Both the position numbers and the translations under genes were made by a program. Shown piece after piece: positions 28,106 through 44,478 of a stretch of DNA of 64,000 nt. Numbering within the stretch: position 1 is the first letter of the stretch; each line of letters begins with the position of its first letter. The notes under the pieces were generated by a model, which made no database searches, had not been told where the DNA came from, and was given only the letters and a program-made list of their open reading frames with translations. The stretch is from Microcoleus sp. (lineage in GTDB: Bacteria > Cyanobacteriota > Cyanobacteriia > Cyanobacteriales > Microcoleaceae): the NCBI GenBank assembly GCA_042408215.1, contig JAYFMW010000003.1, positions 416,001 to 480,000 of the forward strand. Reading direction: 5' to 3'.

Positions 28106-29081
28106 TTTTTTTCTGTGCGATCGACACAACTAACTACTAACTTAACACTTCCGCACACTTTGACGGTTTGATTTAACAAAAAAGCGACCTGCAAGCGATC
28201 GCCCATCATCTCGTTACTTTAACTCATTGTACAGTTCGCGAAACACTAGATCCGCGAGCTTACGGCAACTAGCATTCCGAGCATCGGCGAGCCTGCCTCC
28301 GCGCTTTTTAGTTCCATCGCTTTCAAACGCGCGACTGACAAAATATTCGCGTAATTCCAACTGCAATACAGTGTAAGACTGTCCTTTGAGCTTCTGCGGT
28401 TCAATGCGGCAGTGCACGTAAGTCCACATCGTGCTCCTAGTGTTGGCACACCCCGTCCACTTGCTACCACCGCCACCTGCCCGGACTTGCCCGCTAGATC
28501 TCTCAACTTTGCCAAGTCCGCAAGCTTGTCGAAATCGTCGGAGCGCGCGCTTCTTCGGCAAGCACTGGAAGTCCTCGAACGGGAATATTCGAGAGAGAAT
28601 CCAGCCGCGCTCGCGGTAGCCGAATGCAAACTTTTCAAAAATTCGGTGATAAGGATCGAAGTCAGGCTCGCCAAGCAGGTCAATCAATCTGCGTTCAACT
28701 CTTGCCTCGGTATCGTGCAGGTCGCAAACCACCGCTGCGAGTTCCCGCGTCATTTCGGAGATATTTGCCCGATCGCACTTTTGCTCTTTCTCATAGTGAT
28801 TTTTGAATCGCGACAGAATGTTTTTAGACAGAAAGTTGCCGCGGTCGGCGAGCCACGCCCAAAACGCCGGCGGTTTGCCCGGTTCGAGCGAACCGTTTTG
28901 CCGCTGGCTGTTGACCGTCGCGCGCGCTGGATATTCCGCTCTATAAGACTTAGACAAAGTTAGACACCGTTAGATGTTTTTACTCTGATGCTTATTTCCT
29001 GTTTCAGCGTAGTCTCAGAATGACTTCTGAGGGTTTGTCTACTCCACAGGCAATCTCGGTAGAGCTTACCGTTTGATTCAT

Positions 29082-30209
29082 TCAATCTGAGCGAATCGGA
29101 ACGTGAATTCCTTCAAACCATCGCTCGATATTTTTAGCAGCATTCAAGTCTCTGTCTTCTGTGTGACCGCAATCAGGACACACATAAACTCGATTCTTTA
29201 ATGGCATTTTGTGGCGGTGATTTCCACAATTTGAGCAAATCTGAGAACTCGGAAAAAAGCGGTCAACTAGAATCAACTGACTAGAAAAATTTTCAGTTTT
29301 GTATTCTAGTTGTCGCTGAAATTCGTACATTCCACAATCTGCAATTGCACCCGCCAATTTGTGATTTTTCAAAAATGCTTTGACATTCAAGTCCTCAATT
29401 TTAATCACGCTGTGGTTTTTAGCGAGATAATTAGTGAGTTTGTGAATAGCATCTTTGCGGATGAATGAGATGCGAGAATGCAGCTTTGCTAACTTTCTAA
29501 CGGCTTTAGTCCGGTTCTTTGAGCCTTTAGCTTTGCGACTGACAGAACGCTGCAATCGCTTCATTTTTTTACTCATTTTGCGGTCAGCTTTAGGGTTGGC
29601 AAAAACCTTCCCGTCACTGGTAATAGCCAATTCCTTGATACCAATATCAACGCCAACAGAGGGGCGATTTAGTGGTGTTGGAGGCTGTTCAATCTCATAC
29701 TTGATAGCTATAAACCATTGCTCAGCAGTGCGACTAATTACGCAGTTATGGGTAGATGTGATAGGTAAAGGTTCGTGCAGTATAACCCAACCAATTTTAG
29801 GGAGTTTAACTCGCTTACCATCATTGCTGATACCAGGCTTGGCTTTAGTGCCTTGCTCAAGATAAAAACTGTCTTTTGACTTGCCTTTTTTCTTGAACTT
29901 AGGCTGTTTGGAGACTTTTTTGAAACATCTATCCCATGCCGTCCTTACCTCTGCTAAAGCTTGTTGTGGACTTGCTTTAGAGCTTTGATAGTACCAGGGA
30001 TTAACTGGTTTAATCTCAGCGACTAGACGTTTGTGCAAGTCAATAGCAGAGGGGATTTTGATTGCTTTGTCAGTCTCTCTAAGTTGTAAAGCTTCCTGAA
30101 TAACAGCATTGCCAAAATTGTAAGCGTGTCTGGCTACTCCACAGTGTTGACGAAATAGAGTCACCTGTTTGTTATTAGGTTTTAATTCCGTCTTAAAACT
30201 GAGTAGCAT
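29082..30209 (-). CDS. tnpB: TnpB (IS607)
   Basis: GVDIG, IEDLN, CSNC..CPDC, DRDLNAA. Confidence 0.93.
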   Translation of the reverse strand: MLLSFKTELKPNNKQVTLFRQHCGVARHAYNFGNAVIQEALQLRETDKAIKIPSAIDLHKRLVAEIKPVNPWYYQSSKASPQQALAEVRTAWDRCFKKVSKQPKFKKKGKSKDSFYLEQGTKAKPGISNDGKRVKLPKIGWVILHEPLPITSTHNCVISRTAEQWFIAIKYEIEQPPTPLNRPSVGVDIGIKELAITSDGKVFANPKADRKMSKKMKRLQRSVSRKAKGSKNRTKAVRKLAKLHSRISFIRKDAIHKLTNYLAKNHSVIKIEDLNVKAFLKNHKLAGAIADCGMYEFQRQLEYKTENFSSQLILVDRFFPSSQICSNCGNHRHKMPLKNRVYVCPDCGHTEDRDLNAAKNIERWFEGIHVPIRSD

Positions 30210-30880
30210 TATTTTACAGCCTCCACTGCTTTAGCTATACCATCAATCAGTTTTTGGTTTTTGTGGCTTCTAGCTCCGTAAAGTCTAGCGCTAAAGACTT
30301 GAATTAATTCAATCATGTCTTGAACTAATTCCTGTTCAAAACTCAACTCATCCGGTGATTTGTTGACAATTACTACCTCGCATTCAAACTCTTCACACAT
30401 CGCAAAAACCAATTCAGAACCAAATCTAAGAAGCCGATCTTTGTGAGTGATGACAAGTCTACCAACTTCACCGGACATGATTCGTTTGAGTAGTTTTGTT
30501 AGTCCCTTTTTCTTGTAATTAAGTCCAGAACCTAAGTCTTGAATTGTCTCAAATTGCCAGCCATTAGCAGCACTAAACGATTCCAAGACAGCAGCCTGAC
30601 GCTTCAAATCTTCTTTTTGGTCGTGACTAGAAACTCTGGCATAGTTGATAGTGATTCGCTCATCTGTCTGATTCAAGTCTCTGGGAATGATTCGCTTGAT
30701 ATCGGCAAGGTAGAATCGTCTTTGTCCAGTGGGAGAGCGTTCAAACCTAATCTTGTCTGCATCAGTCCAGCGTCTCAGTGTCTTTGTCGAAATACCAAGC
30801 TCTTTGGCGGCTTCTCCGATTGAAAGGGTCACTTCTGATTGAGTCTCCAAGAGTTGCTTACCTCTAATACTACAACTCAA
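30209..30880 (-). CDS. tnpA: IS607 serine transposase TnpA with a MerR-like HTH (true start probably ~30832)
   Basis: LSIGEAA..LG..TLRRW, YARVSS, DLGSG, DRLLRFG, FSARLYG. Confidence 0.93.
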   Translation of the reverse strand: MSCSIRGKQLLETQSEVTLSIGEAAKELGISTKTLRRWTDADKIRFERSPTGQRRFYLADIKRIIPRDLNQTDERITINYARVSSHDQKEDLKRQAAVLESFSAANGWQFETIQDLGSGLNYKKKGLTKLLKRIMSGEVGRLVITHKDRLLRFGSELVFAMCEEFECEVVIVNKSPDELSFEQELVQDMIELIQVFSARLYGARSHKNQKLIDGIAKAVEAVK

Positions 30881-31451
30881 TAGTTACCCAATCCGGGAAG
30901 AATGTCAATAGGTGTTTATCACAAATCTTTCAGCCCCCTACCCAAGCAAGGCGGCCTTTGATAGAATTGATGAAGCTGGTCTGCTTGCGCGTTGTGGTTT
31001 TCAAGTCCAGCAGCGCGCGGCGGATTTTCTCAATCTGGGGATTGAGCTCCTTTACCCAGAAGCGGCGATCGTACACGTCGAGGTAATGGCGGCGGTAAAG
31101 CTCGCACATCACGAGCGCATCGAACGAATCGTCCTTGTTATCAGTTCCTCCGAGGCTCCGGCGAGTAGCGCGTACCATGCCTTGATCCGCCGTCAGGACA
31201 AAAACCCCGTATCTTCGGAGATGCTTGCGCCAATAGTAAGAATAAGTCCCCGTGCCTTCTAATATTGCGACGGCGGGCGAATCTCCTACTTTTTTGAGCA
31301 AACTTTCGATTTCTGTAGTTTTGTAGACCGAGTGAACCGCGCCAAATTCAGGAGAGAGATAGAAATCTCTGAGTGCAACTGTCGGAAATTTCTCAAGCAA
31401 GACCACGTCCACGCGGTGCGCGGAAACGTCAATTCCTATTACTTTTAACAT

Positions 31452-31720
31452 CAGTCTCCAACTATTAAAACTCTTACATAACCCACGAATCACCCAAGGG
31501 TGTTAACCCATATCCGCACTGAGGCTTAGGAGTTTTTATCGCGCGGCGAGGTTGGAATTCGCCGCGCGTTTGCGATCGGTCGTTCGTTCCCAGGAAGTAT
31601 TGGGGCGATAAAATCACCCACTTCCCATCTAAAGAACTAGAACCAATGCGAGGACGCAACCCTTACCCGCTACTCCCCTTTTTTCCAGGGGAGTTTCGAC
31701 TGTTAGGGAAACAGCCATCC
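31452..31720 (-). ncRNA. Candidate bridge-RNA-like structured non-coding region upstream of the IS110 recombinase
   Basis: Four stem-loops; contains GATGGG + ATCGCCC (match the predicted target) and ATGGG + GATTC (match the predicted donor junction). Confidence 0.45.
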
Positions 31721-32029
31721 TCAGGCGGGAATCAATCCGATCGCGACTAGCGATACGTAGACATAAATTGCTTTGGTCTGTTTGGTAATTGCGCTCGGTT
31801 CTACTTCCTCGAATTTCTTAGCTCGGAGAATATCGTTGGCAATATTTACGCATTCTGCCAAGCAACAGTCAAATGATTTGTGTGAACCTAAGAAACCGCG
31901 AGATTTAGCTGACTTGATAACTGCAAAAGTTTGCTTGAATTCTTCCTCGTTGTAGCTATCTTGCCGTAAGTTTTTGGCATCGGCGAGCAAGCGAAGAACC
32001 AGGCGACTGTTTTTATTGGCAGACTCCAT
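31721..32029 (-). CDS. Hypothetical protein
   Basis: 102-aa ATG ORF co-oriented with its neighbours. Confidence 0.6.
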   Translation of the reverse strand: MESANKNSRLVLRLLADAKNLRQDSYNEEEFKQTFAVIKSAKSRGFLGSHKSFDCCLAECVNIANDILRAKKFEEVEPSAITKQTKAIYVYVSLVAIGLIPA

Positions 32030-32187
32030 AGGGTTATTGTTGGAGGTAGTTGAATTAGAAATTGTTGACTATTTATTGGCGTGTTGATGTATCATTGGGG
32101 CAAGCCGAGTTTGCTTTTTACAAGGCGACTGCTAGAAGCGATCGAGGGTTCGACGTTCGATCGCTTTTAGTTTTTGGATTTTGGATT

Positions 32188-32685
32188 TTAGACTTCGACT
32201 ATAAAGGAGCTGCTGTTAGAGTTTTCGCGCAAGGCTTCTGCCATTCGCTCGACAGATTTTTCTATATCGTCCGAGGACATTCGCCCGAATTCGGCTTGAC
32301 CTATGGCTGCGACGTGTGACGCGGCTTGCTCGAAGTCGCAGTCAAAAATACTTGCTAGCATCTTAATCGCCACGGTGGAAGTAATCCCAGTAGAGACGAT
32401 CACGCACTTCTCTTGTCTTGATAGGTCAGTTAAGCCGATCGCCCGCGGCGCATCCTCTTCATCATCGCTGTCGGGAACGATGCGAATCGACTGCAAATTC
32501 AAGTCGCAACTGTCCAAGAGGTCGGAGAGCGTCTCCCGCAATTCAGTCAACGCGCGGTAATGCCCCTGGACTTTCAGGATGAGGTTCGACACGTTGAAAT
32601 CAATCTCGACAATCTCCCCCTTCATGGCATCGTCAAGCGGCGGCAGTGCGGAATGTTTGAATGTGTAGATGTTTGGATGTTCCAT
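32188..32685 (-). CDS. Hypothetical acidic protein
   Basis: 165-aa ORF with natural composition. Confidence 0.7.
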   Translation of the reverse strand: MEHPNIYTFKHSALPPLDDAMKGEIVEIDFNVSNLILKVQGHYRALTELRETLSDLLDSCDLNLQSIRIVPDSDDEEDAPRAIGLTDLSRQEKCVIVSTGITSTVAIKMLASIFDCDFEQAASHVAAIGQAEFGRMSSDDIEKSVERMAEALRENSNSSSFIVEV

Positions 32686-32774
32686 TGTTGTTAATAGGTG
32701 GTAGGAAGCGATCGCCTAGCTCGAAGGCGATCGCGCTGGAAGCAGATGATGGAAGTCGAATTAGCGGAGGACTG

Positions 32775-33611
32775 CTACATCGCATCACCTCCGCTAGGGG
32801 GCGAGCGAGCGCTCGACTCCGCGCCTGCAAATCCAAGCAGGTAACTGTCAATCAGTCCGTCGTCACAAAACGGGATAGCAGCGAACCGGCCAGCCGATCG
32901 CCTGGATTGGACTGCTTCTAACGGCTTCTGCTGCAAGCCGACTTTGCCCAGTGTGGCAAACCAATCGATCGCGCGGTTGTGGCTGAAGGCATCCGGCGAA
33001 GGTGTCGGAACTTTTTCCGGGGGGTCTAACAAGTCCGACAAGAACCAATCACCAGGAACGAGCAGCCGCCAAATCTCGTAGAGCGTCTTGAACGTTCGCG
33101 ACCTGCTACCAAGACTCAGAACCCATCCCCCGGTGACGGATTTACATAAATCTAGGCAGGCAGCGCGCGCCAATCTGAATACCCGAATGAAGCTGCATTT
33201 TTGCACCGGGGTGATGTCCTTTGCCTCGTAAATTGTCTGTTTGTACGATCGCACTTGCTCCATTAATTCCTGATTCTCGGCGCGCAGCCGCGCGATCTCT
33301 GCCAGCACAGCATCCAGTTCGGAGGGTTCGATTTGTTCCGAAGCGCGATCGGCATCGAGGGATTTTTCGATCGGCTCCAGGGCTTGAATAATTTCGACAC
33401 CGGGGGGAGTTTCGATCGGCTGATTGTCGCAAAGTGCGATCGGCTCCTGGGCTTGAAAAATCGGGAACGGCTGACCGACAAGCGCGGCAACCCAAGTCTC
33501 GCGGCGAGTCTTGTTGCCGTCGGGCGTAATTCCTAATTCCTGCGCGATCTCTTTGAGCTCCGGCAGTAGGTGTTTGTCTAGTAGTTCGCGGGTGTAGATG
33601 TGTAGATCCAT
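32775..33611 (-). CDS. Hypothetical protein with an N-terminal Rho-N/HEH-like motif and a coiled coil
   Basis: LPELKEIAQELGI..GNK; coiled coil AEIARLRAENQEL; start placed at MDLHIY. Confidence 0.7.
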   Translation of the reverse strand: MDLHIYTRELLDKHLLPELKEIAQELGITPDGNKTRRETWVAALVGQPFPIFQAQEPIALCDNQPIETPPGVEIIQALEPIEKSLDADRASEQIEPSELDAVLAEIARLRAENQELMEQVRSYKQTIYEAKDITPVQKCSFIRVFRLARAACLDLCKSVTGGWVLSLGSRSRTFKTLYEIWRLLVPGDWFLSDLLDPPEKVPTPSPDAFSHNRAIDWFATLGKVGLQQKPLEAVQSRRSAGRFAAIPFCDDGLIDSYLLGFAGAESSARSPPSGGDAM

Positions 33612-33752
33612 GATTTTGAAGAAAGGGGCGAGTATGCAGTCCCGCCCCGTCTCGTTGGGGTATGCAGGCAATCTATGGGAGATTTAACGCAGAGGTTCTG
33701 CAAAACCAAGCATTCACGCGGCTGAGCCGAATCCCTTTGTTGTATCTACCTT

Positions 33753-33800
33753 TCCATACTTTAGTATAGACATATTTATTTGTCAACACTAAAGTATGGA
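33753..33800. promoter_or_regulatory. Overlapping divergent sigma70-type promoters within a 13-bp perfect inverted repeat (operator/switch)
   Basis: TCCATACTTTAGT...ACTAAAGTATGGA; + strand TAGACA-17-TAAAGT, - strand TTGACA-17-TAAAGT. Confidence 0.7.
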
Positions 33801-33812
33801 TTCTATAGTAAA

Positions 33813-34166
33813 ATGAATCCAGACACAGGTAACGAGAAAAAAGAGACCTTGAAAAACTTAATTGAAGCGGCGGGTACAACTCAACGCCAGTTAAGTAGGG
33901 ATACCAGTATTGCCGAAGTGACGATTAACACTTGGGCGGCTGGCCGTAAAATACCCCGACTTGACAATGCTGCTTTGGTTGCCAGCCAGTTGGGAGTTTC
34001 GTTGAAAACTTTGGCGAAATCGATGCACCTTGATGTAGTGGCTATCCCCGGCGACTATAGCCTGGTCGAACTCAAGGCAATTGCCGCCGAGTTAGGGATC
34101 GAAAGGGTGGAGGACTTGCCCGAAGACTATCAAGCTCTGAGGCGGATGCGCGATCGGCAAAACTGA
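33813..34166 (+). CDS. XRE/Cro-family HTH transcriptional regulator
   Basis: TQRQLS..TSIAEVTINTWAAGRKIPRL..A..VA..LGVSL. Confidence 0.85.
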   Translation: MNPDTGNEKKETLKNLIEAAGTTQRQLSRDTSIAEVTINTWAAGRKIPRLDNAALVASQLGVSLKTLAKSMHLDVVAIPGDYSLVELKAIAAELGIERVEDLPEDYQALRRMRDRQN

Positions 34167-34246
34167 CGCGCTCCCAAAATACCGCTACACATAAAAGCTT
34201 CTCCCATGAGAGTCGTATTTATGTGTAGCCCTACAAAGTAGAAACC

Positions 34247-34897
34247 ATGAAGCAACTCACGCTGTTTGACGCCCTACCTGTCGAAAGCAGTATCAAACCG
34301 GGGAACTGGGTGAAGCTGCGGCGCAAGAGCAATAATGCCGCCTATTGGAAGAAAGGAGAGATCGTTCGGGTCGAGTCTGTCCATCCCTCGGATGGCAGTA
34401 TTAGATTTTGGAACGAGAGAACTGAAGGCTGGGGGTATCTGTATCCCGACCAGATTGTACTGGTGCCGCTACCCGCTGATTCTGTATCAAGTGCGATCGC
34501 CTTTGATACAGAATCAACACCCGAGTCCGTTGATACAGAATCAACACCCGAGTCCGTTGATACAGAATCAAAACCAGAGCCCGCAGGAATTGATTCTGTA
34601 TCAGAGCCGATCGCCCTTGATACAGAATCAAAACCAGAGTCCGTTGAAATTGATTCTGTATCAGGGCCCGTCAGCACCTACTCCCCCAAAGGAACGGCCC
34701 GCTGCGGGGAACTGAAATACTTTCGATTCAGCTACCGCTGCGGAAAAAAAATGAAACACGTCCACATTCCCGGCGGGTGTACTCGCGTCTTGCTCGCTCA
34801 GCAAAGAGCAGCCGAAGTGATGGAACTTTCGGCCGCTGGAGTTCCGGCAGTCGAGATTTGCGATCGCATCAAGCAGTGGAGCGGCAAAGTTACCTAG
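34247..34897 (+). CDS. Hypothetical protein: SH3/KOW-like N-terminus, repeat linker, basic C-terminal domain (YFRFSYR..HVHIPGG)
   Basis: MKQLTLFD start; internal DTES repeats; basic putative DNA-binding tail. Confidence 0.7.
   Translation: MKQLTLFDALPVESSIKPGNWVKLRRKSNNAAYWKKGEIVRVESVHPSDGSIRFWNERTEGWGYLYPDQIVLVPLPADSVSSAIAFDTESTPESVDTESTPESVDTESKPEPAGIDSVSEPIALDTESKPESVEIDSVSGPVSTYSPKGTARCGELKYFRFSYRCGKKMKHVHIPGGCTRVLLAQQRAAEVMELSAAGVPAVEICDRIKQWSGKVT
34477..34663. repeat. Seven copies of TGATACAGAATCA in both orientations inside the CDS
   Basis: Forward at 34504, 34531, 34558, 34618; reverse at 34477, 34590, 34650. Confidence 0.9.
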
Positions 34898-35396
34898 AAA
34901 TCGAATGCACCCAGAACTGGCCGTCGTAGGCGCAAGTCCGGCGAACGAGCTCGTAAGAATAGTGCAGCCCCGCGCCGCTGACGCTCGTGTCGTAACCGCC
35001 TGCAAAGTATTCGCCGTAGGGGTCGTTAACAATCAGCCCGGTTTCGTCGTACCCGCGCCCGACGATGATGTGGCCCGACCGGGTGAACATCCCGTGAACG
35101 ATGACGGGGTTGTTGTTGTCGAGCGACTGTTGGATGCCCTCGATCGATCCGTACCACGTAAAGTCATCCTTGCAGCCGTAAGCGCGGACGACCTTTGCCA
35201 AGTCCTCTGCCGAATGCCGGCTCAATTTCTGGCCGCGGACGTACTCGAACAGCTCGTCTTCAAGTTGCCATGCCGAATTTTTCGACCTAATGCCGTGGTA
35301 ATCCAAACACATCGCTACCGAGGTTAAATTGCACGTTCCTTCGGGGTGGTATACATTGTCTAATTGAGAAAAGTGCCTCACGCTCAATACTTTCAT
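34890..35396 (-). CDS. C39-like cysteine peptidase (possible cell-wall hydrolase)
   Basis: SQLDN..GTCNLTSVAM, GHIIV, VNDPYG (Cys-His-Asp). Confidence 0.88.
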   Translation of the reverse strand: MKVLSVRHFSQLDNVYHPEGTCNLTSVAMCLDYHGIRSKNSAWQLEDELFEYVRGQKLSRHSAEDLAKVVRAYGCKDDFTWYGSIEGIQQSLDNNNPVIVHGMFTRSGHIIVGRGYDETGLIVNDPYGEYFAGGYDTSVSGAGLHYSYELVRRTCAYDGQFWVHSISR

Positions 35397-35581
35397 CCTT
35401 GCCTCCTAGGAGATGGAGCCAGCAAACCAATCAGCGCGCCGTTGCATCCGGTAGCCAAATAAATCAATTCTTGCGGGACTCTCTTGTCTTGTGCAGCCAA
35501 AGAAATCCCCCCCACTGTCACCGCCGAAGAAATCGCACACAGCGAACCAACAATCATCCGATACGACCAAACATCAAGCAT
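35393..35581 (-). CDS. Small two-TM membrane protein (holin-like)
   Basis: Two hydrophobic segments; stop overlaps the peptidase start (ATGA). Confidence 0.6.
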   Translation of the reverse strand: MLDVWSYRMIVGSLCAISSAVTVGGISLAAQDKRVPQELIYLATGCNGALIGLLAPSPRRQG

Positions 35582-35594
35582 CGCAACTATTCAC

Positions 35595-35876: not shown

Positions 35877-35877
35877 C

Positions 35878-36210: not shown

Positions 36211-36323
36211 TATTCAGACTTAAATAACTTAAGCGCTTTCAGTTTTTCAGGTTCTTTGAAGTTCGTATCGATATTTACTCTCGTGCCGCTCTCAAGAATG
36301 AAATAAGTAGGTTTTCGATTTTC
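36210..36323 (-). pseudogene. 3' fragment of a gene cut by the IS605
   Basis: Open frame ENRKPTYFILESGTRVNIDTNFKEPEKLKALKLFKSE*, whose stop overlaps the next ATG. Confidence 0.55.
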
Positions 36324-36359
36324 TTGACATACTCCCCGGCGTAAACGCGCGGGGATTCT

Positions 36360-37520
36360 TTACGCTTCATCGACTGATGCTACCGAAATAGTCTTACTCT
36401 GTCTCAGCGTACATTTAAGGTCGTGCCGATGCCCCATGCCGACCATTTCTATATTCCTAGCAGCGTTTTCATCTCTATCTTGCTCGGTGCCACAACTCAA
36501 ACAAAGCACTGAGCGAATAGACAAATCAATTTTCCCCCACTTAAAACCACAGTCTGAGCAGACCTGGCTAGTTGGCTCCCATCTACTAATTACTTTGAAT
36601 TCTCTGCCCAACTTTTCGGACTTAGCCTCGCACAAAGTTCGGAATTCGTACCATCCTTGCTGACTAATTGCTCTTGAAAGTTTCCGGTTCTTAACCATGC
36701 CCGATACATTGAGGTCTTCCCAAATAATCACTTGGTTTTCGTTAACTATTTTGGTCGATAATTTGTGCAGGAAGTCTTGGCGGGTATCGGCAATCTGATT
36801 GTGCAGTTTGGCAATTCTGATTCGAGTTACACTTCTTCTCCTAGAGTCATGAGGTTGACGAGCTAATTTGCGTTGCAGTTTGCGAACTTTCCGATCTAAC
36901 TTTTTATAACTAGGGCTTTCAGCTTTCTCGCCATTGCTCATCACCGCAAAGGTTTTGATTCCTAGGTCGATTCCAATGCTAGGGTTTTTAGCCTCAGCCT
37001 GAATTGGTTGAACCTCTATAACAAAACTCAAGAAATAACGATTTGCACAATCCTTGATTACCGTGACGGAGCTAGGTTCAGAGGGTAGCTCCCTCGACCA
37101 AATTGGGCTGACAATTCCAATCTTGGCTAAGTAAATACCACGATGTTTAAATGAGAATCCTCCAACTCTAAAACGTGCCGATTGACTGCCAGTTCTTTTT
37201 TTGAACTTAGGATATCCGACTTTACGTCCTTTTCTCTTTCCCTTGCAGGAGTTAAAAAAGTTTTTGAAAGCAACATCTAAGTCGGCAACAGACTGTTGTA
37301 ATGGGACGCACGACACCTCTCCTAGCCAAGCCCTTTCTTCAGTATTCTTAGCCTGAGTAATGACGATTTTTTGCAAATCTGCCGAACTTGGCTTTTTATC
37401 TGACTGCTTGCAGAGTGCAAGCGCATCGTTCCAGACCACTCGGACGCAGCCAAACAACCGAGCTAGGCTCTGCTGTTGTTGGCTGGTTGGGTAAAATCTG
37501 TAGCGATATCTTGCTTTCAT
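36360..37520 (-). CDS. tnpB: TnpB
   Basis: GIDLG, WEDLN, CSDC..CLSC, DRDENAA. Confidence 0.93.
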   Translation of the reverse strand: MKARYRYRFYPTSQQQQSLARLFGCVRVVWNDALALCKQSDKKPSSADLQKIVITQAKNTEERAWLGEVSCVPLQQSVADLDVAFKNFFNSCKGKRKGRKVGYPKFKKRTGSQSARFRVGGFSFKHRGIYLAKIGIVSPIWSRELPSEPSSVTVIKDCANRYFLSFVIEVQPIQAEAKNPSIGIDLGIKTFAVMSNGEKAESPSYKKLDRKVRKLQRKLARQPHDSRRRSVTRIRIAKLHNQIADTRQDFLHKLSTKIVNENQVIIWEDLNVSGMVKNRKLSRAISQQGWYEFRTLCEAKSEKLGREFKVISRWEPTSQVCSDCGFKWGKIDLSIRSVLCLSCGTEQDRDENAARNIEMVGMGHRHDLKCTLRQSKTISVASVDEA

Positions 37521-37569
37521 GGTTGTGCTAAGATTGGTCTGCCACTAAATTATATCTTGGTTTCCAGAA

Positions 37570-37967
37570 ATGACAACTTTTATCGCCGATAACGCCATTC
37601 TGTTACAGAACTTAAAATACACTTGGTCTGTGTAACAAAGTACCGTCGGTCTGTATTTACGGGTGAAAGCCTTGATTTGATTGAAAAATCGTTTCGAGAG
37701 GTTGCTGAAAAAATGAATTTTCAGGTTCTAGAGTTTAATGGTGAAGGTAATCACGTTCATGGGCTGATTGAGTATCCGCCTAAACTTTCTATTTCTCAAA
37801 TAGTGAATGCTTTGAAAGGAGTTTCTAGCCGTCGGTACGGACAGGCTGTACACAAAAAACCCCACAAAGAAGCTTTATGGAGTCCTAGCTATTTTGCGGT
37901 TTCTGTAGGCGGTGCACCTTTGGAAGTATTGAAGGAATATATTAGAAATCAAGAAAAGCCGTCCTAA
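37570..37967 (+). pseudogene. tnpA: IS200-type Y1 transposase with a damaged 5' end
   Basis: HLVCVTKYRR, NHVH, LWSPSYF..GGAP..KEYI; ATG at 37570 is out of frame, with an in-frame TAA nearby. Confidence 0.8.
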
Positions 37968-37996
37968 AAGGACGGGGCTTGTATCCCATTTTCTTG

Positions 37997-38374
37997 GTCA
38001 AAATCACCACCGGTATTAAATGGGTTGCGGGTACGTGGTACGCGATACCCGGGCTTGTTATTCCTTTTGCGTTGGGAGAGGTACGATCGTACTACCTGGC
38101 TGTAAATTATCAATACAGCGAAGTGACGAATACTTACAACCACTGGCAAATGGGCGGTCATTGCTTCTTGCCAGGCGGTATAGGCTGGAAAGCTGCCGGA
38201 ACGCCGGCCGAAGTTGTCATGACGCTCCAGCATCACCACGGTAGCGATAGCAGCGCTCTTACTTTTAGATCGCCGGCTGGGAGTGGAGATAGAGGTCTAG
38301 AAGTTAAGCCTAATTTTGACATAACAATCAGCGGCTTAGGGTTTATAGAATTTGCTCTCAAGCGTTTTGGATGA
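37997..38374 (+). pseudogene. 3' fragment of a beta-rich protein lacking its own start
   Basis: Natural-looking aromatic/Gly-rich text starts exactly at the IS boundary; the ORF-track start lies inside the IS end. Confidence 0.55.
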
Positions 38375-38424
38375 CTTGCTCAAAATCGTTCAAAGAGTAG
38401 AGGCAAAGAGATAGATAATAGAAC

Positions 38425-40086
38425 ATGAGTAAGATTTCATTCGACACAGAAAACCAGGAAATTCAAGTAACCCGAAGCATCGGGAAAAATGGGGATGGAA
38501 AAATTACCATCAACAGAGAAGGAGGTGCAATTGAGATTAATTTAGGGATTGCATCAATTGGAGCGACAGCCGAGTACGGCGGCGCTATATCTCTCGGCAT
38601 TGCGGGGCAAGAGGTCACTTGGGGGAGAGAGGGAGGCACTATCCATATCGGAATTGGCGGCTTTGCTGTGGACGTAGAGGCAAAAGATTGCATTATCACG
38701 GAAACAAAATCTATTTTCGGGCAAATCGTCGCGCAGCGAAGTTACCCCGACCCGGGGTGTAAATTACCCGATCCGCCAACTCCAACACCAACTCCAACCC
38801 CAACACCAACACCCGCGCTTAATGCAGTAGAAGTTCCCGATACTGAGACCGAAGGTTGGGTATTTGTTCATGTGAGATATTACGGAGGACGACTCTCGGT
38901 CGGGTCTCCATATCCGGCGCCGGAGAGATTTGAGGATCGTTATATCGTAAGTCCTGTTGATGAATTTAGGTCTGCGTGGGTCAAGGCAGCTCCTTTTGAT
39001 ATCGACATTATGACTCTATATCCACCGCCGAAACGGACGCTAATAAAAAAAGGCACAACACTGTGGATGCACTATATCGAGGTTAAAGATGCTAGCTGGA
39101 AAGGAGGCGGAGGCTATTCCCAAGTACCTACGCTTGCCATGCAAAATGCGGTTAGTGTTTACTTCACCTCAGACACTAGCCCGTTGTTTTTCTGGGGGCG
39201 CTTTAGCGATATCCGTAAATTTTTAAGGATTAAAAACGAGCAAAATGCTATCAAAGGAGCGCAGCTAGACAAGTACGGTATTCCCCCCGCCCTCCATGAA
39301 TGGATACCATACGCTTGTATCCCCTTTAGAGGGCCATTAGACAATCCCAAACCTAAACCTCTCTTACCCACAGGAAACAAACCACCCGTGAACGATTGCT
39401 GTGAAGAAATTTTGGACATATTAGAAGATATCAAGGAAGCCTACGCGGTAGACCGCATTTTAAAAGACAAATTTCCGGTATCGAATACATTTATGGCCCC
39501 GGAATGCGATCCGGCGGCTACCACGGAGGCGACAAATTTTTATGAAATTTTGCAGTGTCTGTTTCGGATGCTCTCGCACGGTTTGATTTTTGAACCGCGC
39601 GTGTCAATCAAAGACGCTGACGCTGCCAAAGCCGGCGACCAAGAATGTAAGACGCGGTACCTCAACGCGACGGGCTGGGCATCGGCAGTATCGGAAGCGT
39701 TAATGGAAGTAAAAGACGACGGTAACGTGTCTACAAATATGGACATTAGAAGCGGTTTTGCAGCTACTCAAACAATGGTTGGCGTAGCAGATGCGCTCAC
39801 CAAATTAGATGCAATTCTCGACTGCATGGGTTTAACCCTAATGCCTAAAGTGGAGTCGATTCAAACGCCTTACAACTGCTTTATTAAGATAGGTAAAGGA
39901 TTTGGCGAAGGCAACGAGCGGCAAATTGACTTAAACCAAGATGAGGCGACAGAGAAATTATTGCCCGACTTCTTGCAGACTAAAATCAACAAAATTAAAA
40001 CAGTTGCAATTCACCCCAGGATCGAAACTATTTTAGACATTTTGCAAAGGATAGAATCAAACTTACCGCCGCAAAGCAATGGTTAA
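38425..40086 (+). CDS. Large hypothetical protein (Gly-rich beta N-terminus, PT linker, helical C-terminus); possible virion/attachment protein
   Basis: 553-aa ORF, first of four closely coupled genes. Confidence 0.75.
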   Translation: MSKISFDTENQEIQVTRSIGKNGDGKITINREGGAIEINLGIASIGATAEYGGAISLGIAGQEVTWGREGGTIHIGIGGFAVDVEAKDCIITETKSIFGQIVAQRSYPDPGCKLPDPPTPTPTPTPTPTPALNAVEVPDTETEGWVFVHVRYYGGRLSVGSPYPAPERFEDRYIVSPVDEFRSAWVKAAPFDIDIMTLYPPPKRTLIKKGTTLWMHYIEVKDASWKGGGGYSQVPTLAMQNAVSVYFTSDTSPLFFWGRFSDIRKFLRIKNEQNAIKGAQLDKYGIPPALHEWIPYACIPFRGPLDNPKPKPLLPTGNKPPVNDCCEEILDILEDIKEAYAVDRILKDKFPVSNTFMAPECDPAATTEATNFYEILQCLFRMLSHGLIFEPRVSIKDADAAKAGDQECKTRYLNATGWASAVSEALMEVKDDGNVSTNMDIRSGFAATQTMVGVADALTKLDAILDCMGLTLMPKVESIQTPYNCFIKIGKGFGEGNERQIDLNQDEATEKLLPDFLQTKINKIKTVAIHPRIETILDILQRIESNLPPQSNG

Positions 40087-40342
40087 ACAATCGGCAGTTA
40101 CTCAGGCTGATATTAAGGTATTTATCGCGCGCCAAGTGAAAGACGATGTAAGGCAACTCCGGCGCGAGCGCGCGCTAGAGCGGATTAACGTTTTAAAAGC
40201 CGTCGGCGTCGGCCACATGGACAATTATATAGACGAGTGGGAACAAGACTTTGCCAACTCCACCACCTCGCCCAAGTCGCCGGAACCCAAAAATAAGAAG
40301 CTCAAGAAAATCACTAGCGTAAGACGGGATGTAAGACGATGA
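40079..40342 (+). CDS. Hypothetical protein
   Basis: Overlaps both neighbours. Confidence 0.65.
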   Translation: MVKQSAVTQADIKVFIARQVKDDVRQLRRERALERINVLKAVGVGHMDNYIDEWEQDFANSTTSPKSPEPKNKKLKKITSVRRDVRR

Positions 40343-41280
40343 ACCCACAGGCCGGCGTTACAGTTGAAAATTCTAGCCTCGCAATCACTCTCGGCGTCAA
40401 GCTGGGGAGTTGGTTTCAGGGCATAGGCAGCCAAATCGGCAACATACTTTCAAGGGGCCTTTTAAATGTAAAAAGCCTTTTGAGTAACATGGTCAACGGC
40501 ACGAAAGAGCTGTTCGGCGCGATCGCCCGAGGCGACTGGAACATCTTTAAAAACTGGCTCAAAGAAGATCCTGTTGCGGTCACTGCCGGCGCTGTCGCCG
40601 TGCTACTAATCGGTGGCATCGTCGTCGGCGCTGTCGCCGGAGGAGTGGCTGCAATTGCCACTGCTGTCGCTGGTGCTGGAACAGTTGGCGGCATAACACT
40701 GGCCGGCATTATGCCCTCGCTGGTACAGGGAGCTGTCTCTGTCGGCGAGACAATCTATAACTTTGATTTCAACAAATCAGACGATCAATTATTGAAAGAG
40801 CTCAATCAAGGTTTTATCAACTTTGTGGGCGTAGCGGGCGAGTCGCTCGGGCGATCGCTTGCCAATTTCATCATTGGGGGCGACAAACTGCCGAAACTGC
40901 GGATAGACCGAAACGCGATGCGGACTATGTTTCTGGTACTTGAAGACGAATCGGAGACGGGCGAGGAAATTTTGCAGGAACTCAGCACGATCGGCTGGGC
41001 GATATTCAAGTTGGCGAGGCAAGCTTTGTTTGCTGCGGGATTTATCAATTTTAGGAAATGGGCTAAGCAGAACGTCAAGAGCGGCATCCCGTGGATTGAC
41101 AAAGCTATTGCCTCCTGGGGAACCGGCAAACCGCTAATTTTGAGCGAAGAAATTAACGAATTCGTGCAAACAGTCGAGGAAGGTAACGTCGCATTGGGCA
41201 ACTTCTTAGAAAATATTCTCGAAGGCTTCGGCGGCGGCACTAAGGAAGCCGTGATTCGGCGGTTTGTAGTTTATAGCTAA
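40339..41280 (+). CDS. Hypothetical membrane protein with a long Gly/Ala hydrophobic segment
   Basis: VAVTAGAVAVLLIGGIVVGAVAGGVAAIATAVAGAG; ATGA overlap. Confidence 0.75.
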   Translation: MNPQAGVTVENSSLAITLGVKLGSWFQGIGSQIGNILSRGLLNVKSLLSNMVNGTKELFGAIARGDWNIFKNWLKEDPVAVTAGAVAVLLIGGIVVGAVAGGVAAIATAVAGAGTVGGITLAGIMPSLVQGAVSVGETIYNFDFNKSDDQLLKELNQGFINFVGVAGESLGRSLANFIIGGDKLPKLRIDRNAMRTMFLVLEDESETGEEILQELSTIGWAIFKLARQALFAAGFINFRKWAKQNVKSGIPWIDKAIASWGTGKPLILSEEINEFVQTVEEGNVALGNFLENILEGFGGGTKEAVIRRFVVYS

Positions 41281-41297
41281 ATGCTGCGAAACCAGAA

Positions 41298-42143
41298 ATG
41301 AGCACCGAGAGAACAGAGGCAAGAATTGCTCGCATTCTTGCGAAGAGCGACATTACATTTACTCGCATCGCCGGACAACCTGACAAGAAGCCGTCCGAGC
41401 AAAGCCACTTCGACGTTTATGAGCTCACGCTCGACAAGGATGACGAACCAGTCAAAATATTGATTTCCGGCAGCCAGCCGTTTATCGCCTTGCAGGCTAG
41501 TCTGCTGCCAGCAATTCAGCAGCTAATTAGGGCTGAAATTGAGCGCGCTGATTTGGCTCAACTTGTCGGTTATCCGTACGGCGATTACGTCGAACAGCAC
41601 GTCGCCCCCGCGAGCGTGCAAATTCACTGGCGGTTGTCCGGCACTCGCCCCTACGAACCGGCAAAGCTAATTCGCAAACTCGGAGGAAAAAAGCCGCCGA
41701 CACCGTACCTGACTATCCCAAACATCCACCGCAGCAAATGCACTTGGGAAAATATTTTAGCAGCGGCGGGTGGCGAGAACGGTTACACGTACGGCGGACA
41801 CTATGCCGTCGCTTTGATGGGAGACAAAACAACCGACGCAAAAATCGGCAAAGGCGGCCAGATGAAAGCCTATGCCAACTCGAAAGGGGCGGCGACTGAG
41901 TTAGTAGAACGCGCTGCCGAATTGAGCAAGTCCCGCGTTTTGCGGCTGGTGCACGGGGAAGAAGTGCGATCGACTAAATTAAAAATGCGAGTATTTCCCG
42001 CGTGGTTTTTAATCTTCAACTCTCGGCTCGCACAGGAAAACCGCGAGCTAAACATCAGGACAGACACCGGGCAGAAAATCCAACTCGGTTACAAACCGGC
42101 AGATGTTCGCGAGGTTATCCGCAAGTGTTTAGAGAAGGGTTAG
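41298..42143 (+). CDS. Hypothetical protein
   Basis: 281-aa ORF in the same operon. Confidence 0.75.
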   Translation: MSTERTEARIARILAKSDITFTRIAGQPDKKPSEQSHFDVYELTLDKDDEPVKILISGSQPFIALQASLLPAIQQLIRAEIERADLAQLVGYPYGDYVEQHVAPASVQIHWRLSGTRPYEPAKLIRKLGGKKPPTPYLTIPNIHRSKCTWENILAAAGGENGYTYGGHYAVALMGDKTTDAKIGKGGQMKAYANSKGAATELVERAAELSKSRVLRLVHGEEVRSTKLKMRVFPAWFLIFNSRLAQENRELNIRTDTGQKIQLGYKPADVREVIRKCLEKG

Positions 42144-42186
42144 CGGCAGTCAGTCTAAATAGAACTTGTGCGATTCCCAATATTCC

Positions 42187-42828
42187 TTATTTTTTGTTTC
42201 CAATGACTGTGCTACCCGGCTCTATGCGATAATCTGGTGTCGGCTCGCCCCAACACTCAAAATCTTCAAACAGCTCAGGGCGCCGCTCTAGATACCAATG
42301 CCAAGCACCCTCCCACCATTTCCAAGCCTGCCAAAAAACGTGAGGAATGATTGAGCGATCGACATGATATCCTTGAGCGTCTCGATGCCATTGGAGCGAG
42401 CAAGCGTTAGCGTATCCATATTTTGCGTAGGTAAAAGCGTATTGGTGAGGAACACAAACCTCGCAGCCGTTACTTAGAGGCAGCGGTACGGACTCAATAA
42501 ATCCATCTCTGGTTACTAATACTTTTAGATATCCTTGACACGTCAAAGGGATATCGACGGGCATCGCTTCGGCCTGCACTTGATTATCCCGATACCAACC
42601 AAATACTGAATCTCCCTCCCTATATAAAGAGCCGGGAGTGAATCGATTCTTAATCCAGTCGGGCAAATGGTCAAATTCTGCTAGGACTTCTTTAATTAGT
42701 TCAAGTGTATTCGATTCTGTCGAAGTGTTAACGGTTCTTGTTATTACTCCTTTGGCACGACTTGCCTCGATTGGGAATGTGGTAGCTATGTATTTTTCGA
42801 TTGCTTTTCTAAACTTGACTTTAAACAT
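42187..42828 (-). CDS. Hypothetical Trp-rich protein
   Basis: 213-aa ATG ORF, more AT-rich than its neighbours. Confidence 0.6.
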   Translation of the reverse strand: MFKVKFRKAIEKYIATTFPIEASRAKGVITRTVNTSTESNTLELIKEVLAEFDHLPDWIKNRFTPGSLYREGDSVFGWYRDNQVQAEAMPVDIPLTCQGYLKVLVTRDGFIESVPLPLSNGCEVCVPHQYAFTYAKYGYANACSLQWHRDAQGYHVDRSIIPHVFWQAWKWWEGAWHWYLERRPELFEDFECWGEPTPDYRIEPGSTVIGNKK

Positions 42829-43229
42829 TTTTCATTGTATTTTTTCCATCGTTCCATTATATTCCACCGACGACAATGACTAAACTTTAAATCAATACTC
42901 ATTTTTTTTGCCAAATCTAGTGCAATTAGTGGGGTAAATCCTCCTCATATTTGACACCCGCGCCGAGGGTTTATTTCATCAACTGTCGCGATGTATTTAG
43001 AATCCTCGCCCGGTGTCTTCATGTCGCGGTAGTAGTATGTGTGAAGTGAGTAATATTCGCCGCAAATTACCTTTCCTATTTATTCAGATTTCCAAATCTT
43101 GATCGAGTGACATTTGTATAGCATTGCTTGTCTAGTATGGTGCTAGCGGTGCGCTAGTATGCCGGCGGCGAGCGACGGAAATTAGTTACAAAGAATTACT
43201 GGGTAAGTGATTTTATAACTGCCGCCGTG

Positions 43230-43820
43230 CTATTTTTCCCACAACGTCCTAAATCGCGCTGGATCGAGCGCGGTATATCGGACAGTGTGTTCGATCGACC
43301 TATGACCCAAATACTCTTGAATCAGTCGCGTGTCGTTGCCTTGTGCGGTCAGGGCATAGCCGCAACTGTGCCGCAACATATGGTGATGAAAAGGTATTTC
43401 GAGTTTTGCGATCGCACAAACCGCCGCAAGTGCTTTCGTCACACCGTCGCGAGTCAGCACTAGACCCGTCCGACTCGTAAACATCCAAGGGCTTTTGGTC
43501 GGTTGGCGCGATCGCAACTTGGTACAAAGTCGGCACTCATCCGCCATCATTGGATGCACTCCAGAATTACTTCCCTTGAGTCGGTGAATGTGGATGCGGG
43601 CCTCTTCCAGTTCTATTTGCTCCCACTTCAATCCGATTAGCTCACTGATTCTCAGGCCGTGGCGGTAACTTAGCAGTATAATTAAGTAGTTGCGAGTAGC
43701 TAAGAAAGTATCTTTATTTGCCTTTGTCGCCGTCAACAGGCGTGTTATCTCGGATTCTAGCAGGTATTCTCTATCCCTCCGAGAAGCGTTGGTCGGTCTC
43801 CCTGCTCTGCAATTAACCAT
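43230..43820 (-). CDS. Small tyrosine recombinase (FimB/FimE-like, catalytic domain only)
   Basis: HGLRISE, RLKGS, HMLRHSCG, LGHRSI..TVRY (R-K-H-R-H-Y intact). Confidence 0.93.
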   Translation of the reverse strand: MVNCRAGRPTNASRRDREYLLESEITRLLTATKANKDTFLATRNYLIILLSYRHGLRISELIGLKWEQIELEEARIHIHRLKGSNSGVHPMMADECRLCTKLRSRQPTKSPWMFTSRTGLVLTRDGVTKALAAVCAIAKLEIPFHHHMLRHSCGYALTAQGNDTRLIQEYLGHRSIEHTVRYTALDPARFRTLWEK

Positions 43821-44046
43821 AAAATCTTAGTCAATTCCTACATTTGAAAGGCTTGTATCTGCGTTGTTTTGCGAGATTGCGCTCTGCATAACACACATTT
43901 TGTATAGTTTAACCCGTGAGAGTGTAGGAAGTGCTGGAACTATCGGTATGTCAAGGATTTGAGACGCGCAGCGCTTGCAGTTTGGGGGATTTTTAGGGCA
44001 ACGCCAGGAGCCGATCGGGCGATAGCCATTAAGCGGACTCTACTGA

Positions 44047-44295
44047 TTAAGTTTTACCGCCAATCAATTTTAATTCATCCGCCGTGTAAACTGTCCGCTG
44101 GTAATCGCACCTCGACTCAACGCACTGCTCTATCCCGTCAACCGAAAGCATCCCTAGCAACGTTTTGCCACACTTAGGGCACCTTCTCAAAAAACATTTT
44201 GTTACCCAGACACCGCCGATATTGATTTGTCGTAAGTATGCACCGTGCCGCGCGTACTTTTTAGCGAGATTGTGTTCGATTGTTGCTGCTGACAT
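44047..44295 (-). CDS. Small Zn-ribbon protein
   Basis: CPKC...C....C; ATG 14 nt from the element boundary. Confidence 0.6.
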   Translation of the reverse strand: MSAATIEHNLAKKYARHGAYLRQINIGGVWVTKCFLRRCPKCGKTLLGMLSVDGIEQCVESRCDYQRTVYTADELKLIGGKT

Positions 44296-44478
44296 AAGAA
44301 CAGGGGATTCCCATCAGTTTGCGCGGCAGGAGTGATATCAAATCCGTTGGTATCGTCCTGTATTCATCTCTCTCTTCTCTTCCTCTGCGGTCTCTGCGGT
44401 CTCTGCGGTTTAATCATTCCGAAACAACCGTAAACGAGAGGACCAATGTTTCGACACTAATGAACAGAACCTCTATAT

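Follow-up and report, generated by a model that had tools for sequence, protein, structure and literature searches.

A 16-kb element in Microcoleus with an IS110-family recombinase and a bridge-RNA-like guide as its probable means of integration

Background

How did a block of about 16 kb, with an IS110-type recombinase gene at one edge and a tyrosine recombinase gene near the other, come to be integrated in the genome of a Microcoleus strain? The block lies in a stretch of 64,000 nucleotides (assembly GCA_042408215.1, contig JAYFMW010000003.1, positions 416,001 to 480,000), which we call the window; coordinates are positions within this 64-kb window, and the recombinase strand is the minus strand. 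An original prediction, made from the sequence alone, proposed that the IS110-family recombinase and not the tyrosine recombinase integrates the whole block in an RNA-guided manner. The analysis supports this proposal by empty sites, by four guide matches, by covariation of guides and flanks, and by junctions that were predicted from the RNA. We put at about 0.9 the probability that 28152-44308 is one mobile unit, an integrative element of ~12.5 kb, and that its integrase is the IS110-family recombinase guided by a bridge RNA encoded upstream of it.

Bridge recombinases are under development for the insertion of large DNA at programmable sites. The natural elements that carry them were reportedly thought to measure ~1.5 kb until a preprint of 2026 on larger, mostly accreted loci. 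Searches across the genus covered 79 genomes; genomes are labelled G and their contigs C, with G000 for the genome of the window (7.36 Mb).

Insertion boundaries and empty sites

The closest relative (G005; L006), whose flank is 95% identical, carries an uninterrupted site AACACT-TC-CCATCAG, reading AACACTTCC followed by CATCAGTTTGCGCGGCTGG, and its sequence beyond this site continues into DNA found further right in the window. An uninterrupted site is also retained in G017 (AACACTTCCCATCAG), and a diverged form of it (CTTCTTATCGGTTTTGGCGGC and variants) is present at 13 further loci. On the left, the homology of the flank carrying an ABC-transporter gene ends at 28150-28152 in 21 of 22 genomes of the same genus, the exception being G018, where it ends at 28053. 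The left junction was placed at 28151/28152 because of the empty sites in G005 and G017 and this common stop of flank homology.

The left junction reads AACACT-TC-CGCACAC and the right junction, at 44310/44311, reads GGGGAT-TC-CCATCAG. Set against the empty site, the two junctions therefore delimit an insertion of 16,159 bp including one copy of the core, with an element body of 28152-44308 on the minus strand; without two nested insertion sequences (ISs) the inserted DNA comes to ~12.55 kb. Only TC is duplicated, with one core copy per junction (28150-28151 on the left, 44309-44310 on the right) and a single TC in the empty sites of G005 and G017. The identity TTCC at both junctions is a chance extension. 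In the empty-site comparison the relatives lack the entire interval 28152-44310 in one piece.

Read on the recombinase strand, the core is GA and the host target is CTGATGG-GA-AGTGTTAAG, in which CTGATGG is the left target (44311-44317) and AGTGTTAAG the right target (28141-28149), both host DNA. The element starts with the right-donor terminus ATCCCC (44303-44308, minus strand) and finishes with a short right end of 62 nt (28152-28213, minus strand), where a terminator-like hairpin follows the stop codon and the left-donor terminus reads ...GTGTGCG. The start GA(A/G)TCCCC is common to the copies in G000, G010, G011, G087 and G004 and to both copies in G093, and all 12 aligned copy ends finish with TGTGC(G/A), then GA. 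Joined element ends would read ...GTGTGCG-GA-ATCCCC...

The boundaries of the original prediction had been drawn from a direct repeat CCCATCA at 28202-28208 and 44310-44316. Both copies are present, and so are the distances given with them: the end of the IS110-type open reading frame (ORF), at 28214, is 5 nt away from the left copy, and the start of the Zn-ribbon ORF, at 44295, is 14 nt away from the right one. The right copy does overlap the true junction, whereas the left copy lies 50 bp inside the element. A direct 7-mer is common to 55% of 5,000 random pairs of 120-nt zones taken 16.1 kb apart in this window, and CCCATCA itself occurs five times in it; the repeat alone therefore has no weight, since such sharing is at chance level. 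Nor is the left copy a conserved feature, as G010 and G063 have CCTATCA there and G011 has an entirely different sequence. It follows from the sites in G005 and G017 that the right half of the reconstructed empty site (CATCAGTTTGCGCGGCAGG) was correct and the left half was not. An empty site was expected in relatives and does exist in these two genomes. The proposed circle junction GGGGATTCCCATCATCTCG is wrong, as the ends of the element predict GGGGAT-TC-CGCACACTTTG instead.

The guide RNA

A bridge-RNA-like non-coding RNA is encoded at 31471-31728 on the minus strand. The 270 nt between the gene for a 102-aa protein and the start of the recombinase gene are kept in 8/8 copies of this recombinase lineage with a mean column identity of 77% (alignment A1), and the RNAalifold consensus of the eight copies has 59 pairs, 21 of them with compensatory changes. 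A search of Rfam over 27500-45000 gave no family at E<=1. The variable stretches of the RNA are the guide positions, that is, two pairs of short segments, each pair around a small hairpin. The first, or target, loop holds the left-target guide (LTG, 31622-31630) and the right-target guide (RTG, 31594-31602); the second, or donor, loop holds the left-donor guide (LDG, 31512-31519) and the right-donor guide (RDG, 31487-31495). A stem GUUCUU/GGGAAC is predicted to close the first loop. The stem closing the second loop is ambiguous, its columns being invariant.

The first variable segment, AGAUGGGAAGUG, is identical to the empty site over 11 nt that span the core; this 11-nt string of the RNA, GATGGGAAGTG, occurs five times in the 7.36-Mb genome. 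The 5' side of the first loop (GAUGGGAA) has the same sense as the left target and core, so it would pair with the bottom strand. The 3' side (AAUACUUC) pairs with the core and the right target, GAAGTGTT, and the RTG of the window forms eight contiguous pairs from the core, consisting of two core and six target bases and including one G-U. Turning to the second loop, its 5' side GUGCGGA fits the left donor and core, GTGTGCG-GA at the 3' terminus of the element, and its 3' side (GGGUGAUUC) pairs discontiguously with the core and right donor GA-ATCCCC at 8/9 positions, with one internal mismatch. The insertion is scarless, its core is GA, and all four matches between guide and DNA are present.

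Covariation of guides and flanks

The four variable bases of the LTG are identical to the left flank in all seven copies with a known left junction, two copies in G093 included. The LTG of the window (ATGG) stands against CTGATGG-GA, that of G010 and G011 (TAAG) against ...CTGTAAG-GA-GTCCCC, that of G087 (TATC) against TTGTATC-GA, and that of G079 (TATC) against GTATCGAGTCCCC on contig C6, while the two G093 copies, which belong to a divergent lineage, have AGGGT and a matching left flank. TATC is also the LTG of G001:C182, and TAAA that of G001:C48 and G001:C90.

In three of the other genomes the junction was predicted from the RNA. The one of G010 and G011 was then located at G010:C6:885 and G011:C202:670. 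The one of G079 is on contig C6, the recombinase being on C28. When the predicted left junctions were looked for by pattern, 24 matches were obtained, compared with 11 in a reversed control, and because of this the pattern alone is not specific; 12 of the loci were tested, of which none had homology to the cargo of the window element and one matched only the nested IS605. The junction on G079:C6 was accepted because a second empty site, at ~576624 in G000:C20 beside psbB, joins its flank to the flank of G079:C28. At this site the two flanks are one base apart, at the core, which is TA here and not GA. The G010 copy has no clean empty site, as other DNA occupies the interval in G000:C6.

On the right side, the RTG agrees with its own flank at 8, 8, 8, 8, 8, 7 and 9 of 9 positions in seven of eight copies. 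There are at least six distinct right flanks among the close copies, plus two for the G093 elements. The G/A position of the LDG, GUGC(G/A)GA, agrees with the terminal base of the element, GTGC(G/A)-GA, in 8/8 copies.

Related elements

Collinearity with the window element extends over the entire block, IS110-type recombinase to tyrosine recombinase, in G010:C6, G011:C202 and G087:C15, and in G087 it continues up to the first gene of the element. These full elements measure 15,038 bp (G010), 14,911 bp (G011) and 15,164 bp (G087), and their recombinases are uninterrupted proteins of 410-416 aa. The recombinases of full elements are 64-90% identical to that of G010, with 82-84% for the two halves of the window protein; relatives close in sequence come from Microcoleus sp. 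and Tychonema sp. Four of the eight copies with the upstream RNA have the full block, and two (G001:C182 and G001:C90) have the neighbouring genes without family match before their contigs end. The contigs of G001:C48 and G079:C28 are too short to show whether the block is present, and G004:C33 is a remnant that keeps both ends and has an internal deletion. Close homologues of the recombinase thus sit at the edge of syntenic gene blocks, as had been anticipated (G010, G011 and G087), and they are not stand-alone ISs of ~1.5 kb.

A deeper lineage is represented by two elements of 19.0 kb and 18.8 kb in the complete genome G093 (C1; L128, ~475-19494, and L129). Their recombinases, each at the end of its element, are 33% identical to that of G010. 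Both elements begin with GA followed by ATCCCCAA, and their RNAs have the same 5' module as the RNA of the window type, with guides that fit both copies: CAGGGUGAAC matches (T)AGGGT-GA-AC, and UUUCGUUC matches GA-ACGAAA with one mismatch in copy B. The cargo shares with the window element a gene for a 216-aa protein and genes near the regulatory switch described below. It further comprises a small tyrosine recombinase, a protein with a Peptidase_S74 fibre-chaperone domain, a nested DDE_3 transposase and a weak Tlde1-like match under the cut-off. The first 62 nt of the RNA also precede three other recombinase homologues of ~33% identity. Because of this RNA module and the G093 elements, we take the association between this recombinase clade and a long left end with cargo to be old.

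The distal cargo is modular. The gene for a 281-aa protein occurs in 4/79 genomes of the genus, always within the element, and the 5' segment of the G079 element has other genes, including a small hydrophobic protein, a 64-aa protein and a weak Tlde1-like protein beside the terminus.

These copies bear on the possibility that a compact IS110 of ~1.6 kb, from 28152 to ~31730, landed at the edge of an unrelated genomic island that had been inserted by other means. The conserved RNA does begin at 31728, the expected place of a classical IS110 left end, and the genus has many IS110-family homologues at ~30-35% identity. However, the LTG matches the flank at 44311-44317 and not the sequence near 31730, the RDG matches the terminus at 44303-44308, and the whole interval 28152-44310 is missing at once in relatives. 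Three other genomes are syntenic from the recombinase through the block, and the 79 genomes of the genus yielded no short copy of this lineage standing alone. We find such a chance neighbourhood scarcely credible.

The recombinase gene and the state of this copy

The recombinase gene of the window is in two parts. The N-terminal part (30944-31451, minus strand) matches Pfam DEDD_Tnp_IS110 with 31.3 bits (cut-off 29) and is 82% identical to residues 1-174 of the intact G010 protein, and the C-terminal part (28214-28935, minus strand; residues ~170-410) is 84% identical to residues 169-409 of that protein. The true start is likely the ATG at 31451 (MLKVIGID...). The intact G010 homologue matches NCBIfam NF051857, 'IS110 family transposase', over residues 3-406 with 235.6 bits (cut-off 180), and Pfam PF01548 with 33.3 bits (cut-off 29). 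The original prediction spoke of a rejoined 410-aa recombinase, and rightly so: an IS607 splits the gene, and uninterrupted homologues of 410-412 aa are present in G010 and G011.

The IS607-type element (28936-30943, minus strand) encodes a TnpB (29082-30209) and a serine-recombinase TnpA (30209-30880), with Pfam matches to OrfB_IS605, Cas12f1-like_TNB, Resolvase and MerR. It is missing from the recombinase copies in G010 and G011. Three other copies in this genome (C3:174527-176536, C5:26739-28746 and C17:510394-512401) are 98.4-99.2% identical, and because of this identity we consider the insertion recent and the IS607 apparently recently active. An IS200/IS605 element (36349-37950, ends approximate) is nested between a lysis-like cassette and an operon that starts with a gene for a 553-aa protein. 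It has a TnpB (36360-37520, minus strand) and a TnpA (37623-37967, plus strand), with Pfam matches to Y1_Tnp and OrfB_IS605; an 85% copy on C20 covers 36324-38000, and many relatives with TnpB only, of 65-84% identity, are found elsewhere in the genome. The element measures 16.2 kb here instead of ~12.5 kb because the IS607 and the IS605 jumped in later.

A genome search gave no second copy of this recombinase lineage. As the gene is also split, this copy is probably immobile, fixed in place unless the recombinase is supplied in trans. Contigs of four public runs from other studies were mapped to 27700-44900 and show almost the same element in the same place. Its left junction is spanned by contigs of X5, X15 and X16, its right junction by contigs of X5 and X15. 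In X16, one contig leaves out the IS607, with a short side of 30 letters, and one leaves out the IS605 at 36349-37950, with a short side of 25 letters; these are hints only of an uninterrupted allele. At position 28225, within the last recombinase codons, the contigs of X5, X15 and X16 are 2 nt shorter, while the length in the window is that of the G010 homologue.

Alternative integrase and opposing observations

The small tyrosine recombinase (196 aa, 43230-43820, minus strand) might itself be the integrase, with the IS110-type gene as a passenger or a later arrival at the edge. It lies near the other end of the element, matches Pfam Phage_integrase at 6.4e-37 and is conserved in the full copies of G010, G011 and G087, and the G093 elements hold a small tyrosine recombinase as well. 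Its best families, however, are DNA invertases of the FimB/FimE type, and it is no longer than those profiles (198-200 positions); it reaches 155.9 bits with the NCBIfam tyrosine-type DNA invertase, under the cut-off of 221. The junctions share TC alone and show no attachment (att)-type repeat with an identical overlap; the att sites with identical overlap and core sites of a tyrosine-recombinase integrative element were not found. This explanation also gives no reason why the two flanks and the two ends should all be spelled out in an RNA beside the other recombinase, nor why that RNA should vary along with them. Integration by the tyrosine recombinase is strongly disfavoured, and we rate it as highly improbable.

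Several observations weigh against integration by the IS110-family recombinase and its RNA. The RTG of G001:C48 pairs at only 5/9 positions with its own flank, but at 9/9 with the G079 allele of the locus; the low value arises because the flank differs by a 2-nt indel from that allele. Off-diagonal comparisons of RTG and flank score up to 8/9, and the base following the GA core is mismatched in several copies. The RTG alone is weak evidence and discriminates poorly, because the target sites resemble one another, so the LTG and the predicted junctions carry the argument. As regards the enzyme, the intact G010 homologue matches Pfam PF02371 (Transposase_20) with 13.7 bits only, under the cut-off of 21.3, and a phmmer search of the recombinase against the PDB sequences gave no match at E<=1. 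The second recombinase, of the tyrosine type, is conserved in full copies. A sigma-70-like promoter across the computed end-to-end junction was found in 0/6 elements by a crude consensus scan that may miss a cyanobacterial promoter. Finally, no circle, excision product or empty-site joint was found among the assembled contigs of the four runs; as contigs drop rare forms and the recombinase is broken in this copy, this negative has no weight in either direction.

Cargo genes

Besides the recombinase the element has ~16 genes, which were searched against Pfam, PHROGs, NCBIfam and PADLOC. No capsid, portal, terminase, packaging, ATPase or replication gene was recognised among 16-24 ORFs in these four collections, and PADLOC gave weak helix-turn-helix (HTH) matches only.

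A switch region at 33753-33809 contains a palindrome with 23-nt arms (inverted repeat I5), flanked by divergent sigma-70-like promoters. The promoter-like sites run from 33786 to 33758 on the minus strand and from 33780 to 33809 on the plus strand, each with 10/12 consensus positions, and the minus-strand site at 33786 is the only one on that strand between 31300 and 34300. A 128-aa protein resembling HTH repressors of the cI/Cro type is encoded at 33780-34166 on the plus strand (Pfam HTH_3 1.9e-8, Phage_CI_repr 1.3e-5; PHROG transcriptional repressors). On the other side, between the switch and the guide RNA, three genes (102, 165 and 298 aa; 31721-33671, minus strand) have no match in the four collections; they are co-oriented with the recombinase and syntenic in G010, G011, G087, G001:C182 and G001:C90.

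Downstream of the repressor-like gene, 34247-34897 (plus strand) encodes the 216-aa protein with acidic 9-residue repeats, due to a 27-nt tandem repeat, of which the G093 elements have a homologue. A lysis-like cassette follows at 34890-36210 on the minus strand, comprising a 110-aa protein, two proteins of 93 and 62 aa with hydrophobic segments, and a 168-aa C39-like cysteine peptidase (Pfam Peptidase_C39_2 1.1e-20; PHROG 10051 'endolysin' 5.8e-16). From these matches and hydrophobic segments, the cassette may have a role at the membrane and in lysis.

An operon at 38425-42143 on the plus strand encodes proteins of 553, 87, 313 and 281 aa, none of which matches any of the four collections. 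It is followed by a gene for a 213-aa protein (42187-42828, minus strand), an ORF that is syntenic in G010 and G011, by the tyrosine recombinase, and by the first gene of the element (44047-44295, minus strand), the Zn-ribbon ORF, which encodes an 82-aa CxxC...C protein with homologues in G087 and G004:C33. No convincing inverted repeats marking a segment that the tyrosine recombinase could invert were found in the element.

The 553-aa protein is part of a broad family of 174 representative clusters; 0/30 relatives had a meaningful Pfam match and 0/55 had any PHROG match. Searched with Foldseek, its AF2 model (mean pLDDT 74, pTM 0.32) had no match in PDB or BFVD at E<=0.001. With VIA-align, the N-terminal beta-meander (residues 1-108) resembles porin/OspA-type sheets at Z 8-9.5, a range that is common for unrelated models. 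The AF2 model of the 281-aa protein is poor (pLDDT 54.7). The ESM Atlas held nothing usable for either protein; IMG/VR held no relatives of either, and the phage collection none of the 553-aa protein. A metagenome scan for the 281-aa gene gave contigs of at most 6.6 kb, and contigs of 14-15 kb are also listed as holding it.

Two further observations concern this operon. The 20,757-bp circular plasmid NZ_CP064893.1 of Tolypothrix sp. PCC 7601 (L125) encodes a 523-aa protein, parts of which show distant similarity to the 313-aa and 281-aa proteins; the alignment with the latter covers 71% of its length at 25.8% identity (E 1e-7). An HTH regulator and a small site-specific integrase are also annotated on the plasmid. 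Within the 553-aa protein, the Pro-Thr linker (38774-38813) has a repeat-length polymorphism, seen as back-steps of 35-37 letters with extra letters in contigs of X5, X15 and X16.

The cargo is temperate-looking, that of an integrative element, as judged by the switch, by the 'endolysin' peptidase and the two small hydrophobic proteins beside it, and by the fibre-chaperone domain found in the G093 relative. The term virus is unproven for it, because no capsid, packaging or replication gene was recognised. Novel virion proteins may be among the cargo.

Proposed mechanism

In the mechanism that we propose for RNA-guided integration by the IS110-family recombinase, the element would excise to a circle, and RNA-guided integration would follow as for IS621. 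Recombination between circle and target at the GA core would give exactly the two observed junctions, with the core as the sole duplication. The RNA and the recombinase may be transcribed from the leftward switch promoter at 33786; if so, the repressor would by that means control excision. The cargo might make a lysis-capable, possibly virus-like or satellite particle, and the FimB/E-like tyrosine recombinase might serve a task other than integration, for example inversion or the resolution of multimers.

As a tentative and rather doubtful extension, these may be temperate virus-like or satellite elements of filamentous cyanobacteria, integrated and excised by a bridge-RNA-guided IS110 recombinase under a cI-type switch. 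If this were true, they would have a natural RNA-programmed integrase for a replicon of 12-19 kb, with an attachment site that is written in the guide RNA and rewritten at new sites.

Comparison with known systems

In the parts of the IS621 report compared here (Durrant et al. 2024, PMC11208160), the bridge RNA has a target-reading loop first and a donor-reading loop after it; their 5' sides pair with the bottom strand and their 3' sides with the top strand. All four pairings include the core, CT, that of the RDG is discontiguous, and the RNA is in the left end upstream of the coding sequence, with a short right end. As far as these parts go, the window element has in common with the IS621/IS110 group an IS110-family recombinase with a guide RNA directly upstream of it and a target loop followed by a donor loop. 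It further shares with IS621, on the same basis, 5' guides in the sense of the top strand and complementary 3' guides, the core in all four pairings, a discontiguous RDG, a short right end and scarless insertion with the core at both junctions.

The window family differs in size, with 12.5-19 kb against 1.2-1.6 kb for ISs of the IS110 group, which consist of recombinase and RNA only. Unlike in IS621, the left terminus is separated from the RNA by ~12.8 kb of genes, and the RNA and recombinase close a leftward operon starting at the cI-type switch. The core is GA instead of the CT described for IS621. Thus the element belongs to the IS110 group by enzyme, RNA and guide logic, and not by classical size and gene content. 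In classical IS110s a promoter is rebuilt across the circle junction of right and left end.

Cargo-bearing IS110 loci have been described by Hu, Xie, Yang and Rubin (bioRxiv 10.64898/2026.08.14.744561, August 2026). According to the main text of this preprint, the loci are mostly derived from plasmids, are rich in resistance genes and grow by accretion, usually with one half-matched donor arm; mobility of the whole unit fades with size and was not detected above ~20 kb, and a circle of 9,177 bp was recovered. With the loci as described there the window element shares an IS110 recombinase, complementarity of guides and flanks, a multi-gene locus far larger than 1.5 kb and a comparison of empty and occupied sites. 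It has the features by which the main text defines loci of >2 kb, namely an IS110 gene, LTG and RTG complementary to the flanks and an empty/occupied comparison. It falls outside the stricter subset described there, that of loci with no alternative transposase or integrase, as it contains the tyrosine recombinase and, nested later, the IS607 and the IS605.

One may ask, then, whether the block is an expanded IS110 locus in the sense of that main text, built stepwise by half-matched donor reactions and no longer mobile as a whole. Such loci are reported to reach ~100 kb with whole-unit mobility falling with size, and the distal cargo of the present family does differ between lineages (the 281-aa gene in 4/79 genomes, other genes in G079 and G093). 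In contrast to the loci described there, both donor arms match the RNA here and not one alone. Whole elements of like content are found at different loci with matching guides (G000, G010/G011 and G087), and the design persists between recombinase lineages that are only 33% identical. A coherent, syntenic gene set thus accompanies the recombinase at several loci and over deep divergence, and the cargo resembles that of temperate elements and not the plasmid and antimicrobial-resistance DNA of the loci in the main text. We consider stepwise accretion very unlikely for this element.

The string 'cyanobacteri' is absent from the main text of the preprint, whose supplements, outside this comparison, may list such elements. 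In literature searches on IS110 bridge RNAs with cargo or prophages, the supplements of the preprint not being covered, we found no provirus-like or cyanobacterial element integrated in this way.

With temperate phages and satellites the window family has in common a site-specific insertion that measures 12-19 kb. The window element resembles them in a cI-type repressor-like protein with divergent promoter-like sites and a palindrome that may be an operator, and it has a cassette of putative small membrane proteins and a peptidase that resembles holin/endolysin modules. The Peptidase_S74 fibre-chaperone domain of the G093 relative is another phage-like feature. Unlike in phages and satellites, the integrase would be an RNA-guided recombinase of the DEDD type and not a tyrosine or serine integrase, and the window element, unlike known prophages, has no recognised gene for a capsid, a portal, a terminase, replication or packaging.

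With RNA-guided integration by the IS110-family recombinase as the preferred explanation, the present family has whole units of 12.5-19 kb at several sites, with both the donor and the target arms in the RNA and with guides rewritten between lineages. Judged by sequence comparison, a coherent gene set has been kept with the recombinase from 90% down to 33% identity. This would be natural evidence that the bridge-RNA reaction handles 15-19 kb as one unit, and that RNA-guided recombinases have been taken up as dedicated integrases beyond the minimal ISs. The family provides a pair of recombinase and RNA with a GA core, in which the RNA would not be driven from the junction, and it suggests that RNA-guided excision may be tied to a repressor switch in its regulation. 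It also adds a family of cyanobacterial mobile elements, with cargo proteins that have no described family in Pfam, PHROGs, NCBIfam or PADLOC.

Host surroundings

The host DNA contains GCGATCGC palindromes, which are typical of cyanobacteria. The left host flank carries the gene for an ABC-transporter ATPase (27341-28129, minus strand). Just beyond its stop codon, at 26912-27301, the heptanucleotide AGTCATC is repeated in 55.7 copies up to an ORF that ends at 26913; a related array is present in G008.

To the right of the element are two short repeats resembling miniature inverted-repeat transposable elements, at 44330-44439 and 44496-44599, each in many copies of 83-96% identity in the genome and across the genus, with 150 matches and 128 more. 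The first of them interrupts the host sequence directly after the target site. Compared with G005, a second strain-specific insertion of ~4.1 kb (~44478-48590) lies between the target site and a tandem array. It contains a 578-aa ORF without family match (44719-46455), a 99-aa ORF and a TnpB-type IS (46797-48026), of which there are many copies of ~67% identity in the genome. The tandem array itself (48382-50369) consists of 5.6 copies of a 356-bp unit with 97% identity and reaches into the start, at ~50100, of a conserved gene; in relatives the unit occurs in fewer copies or singly.

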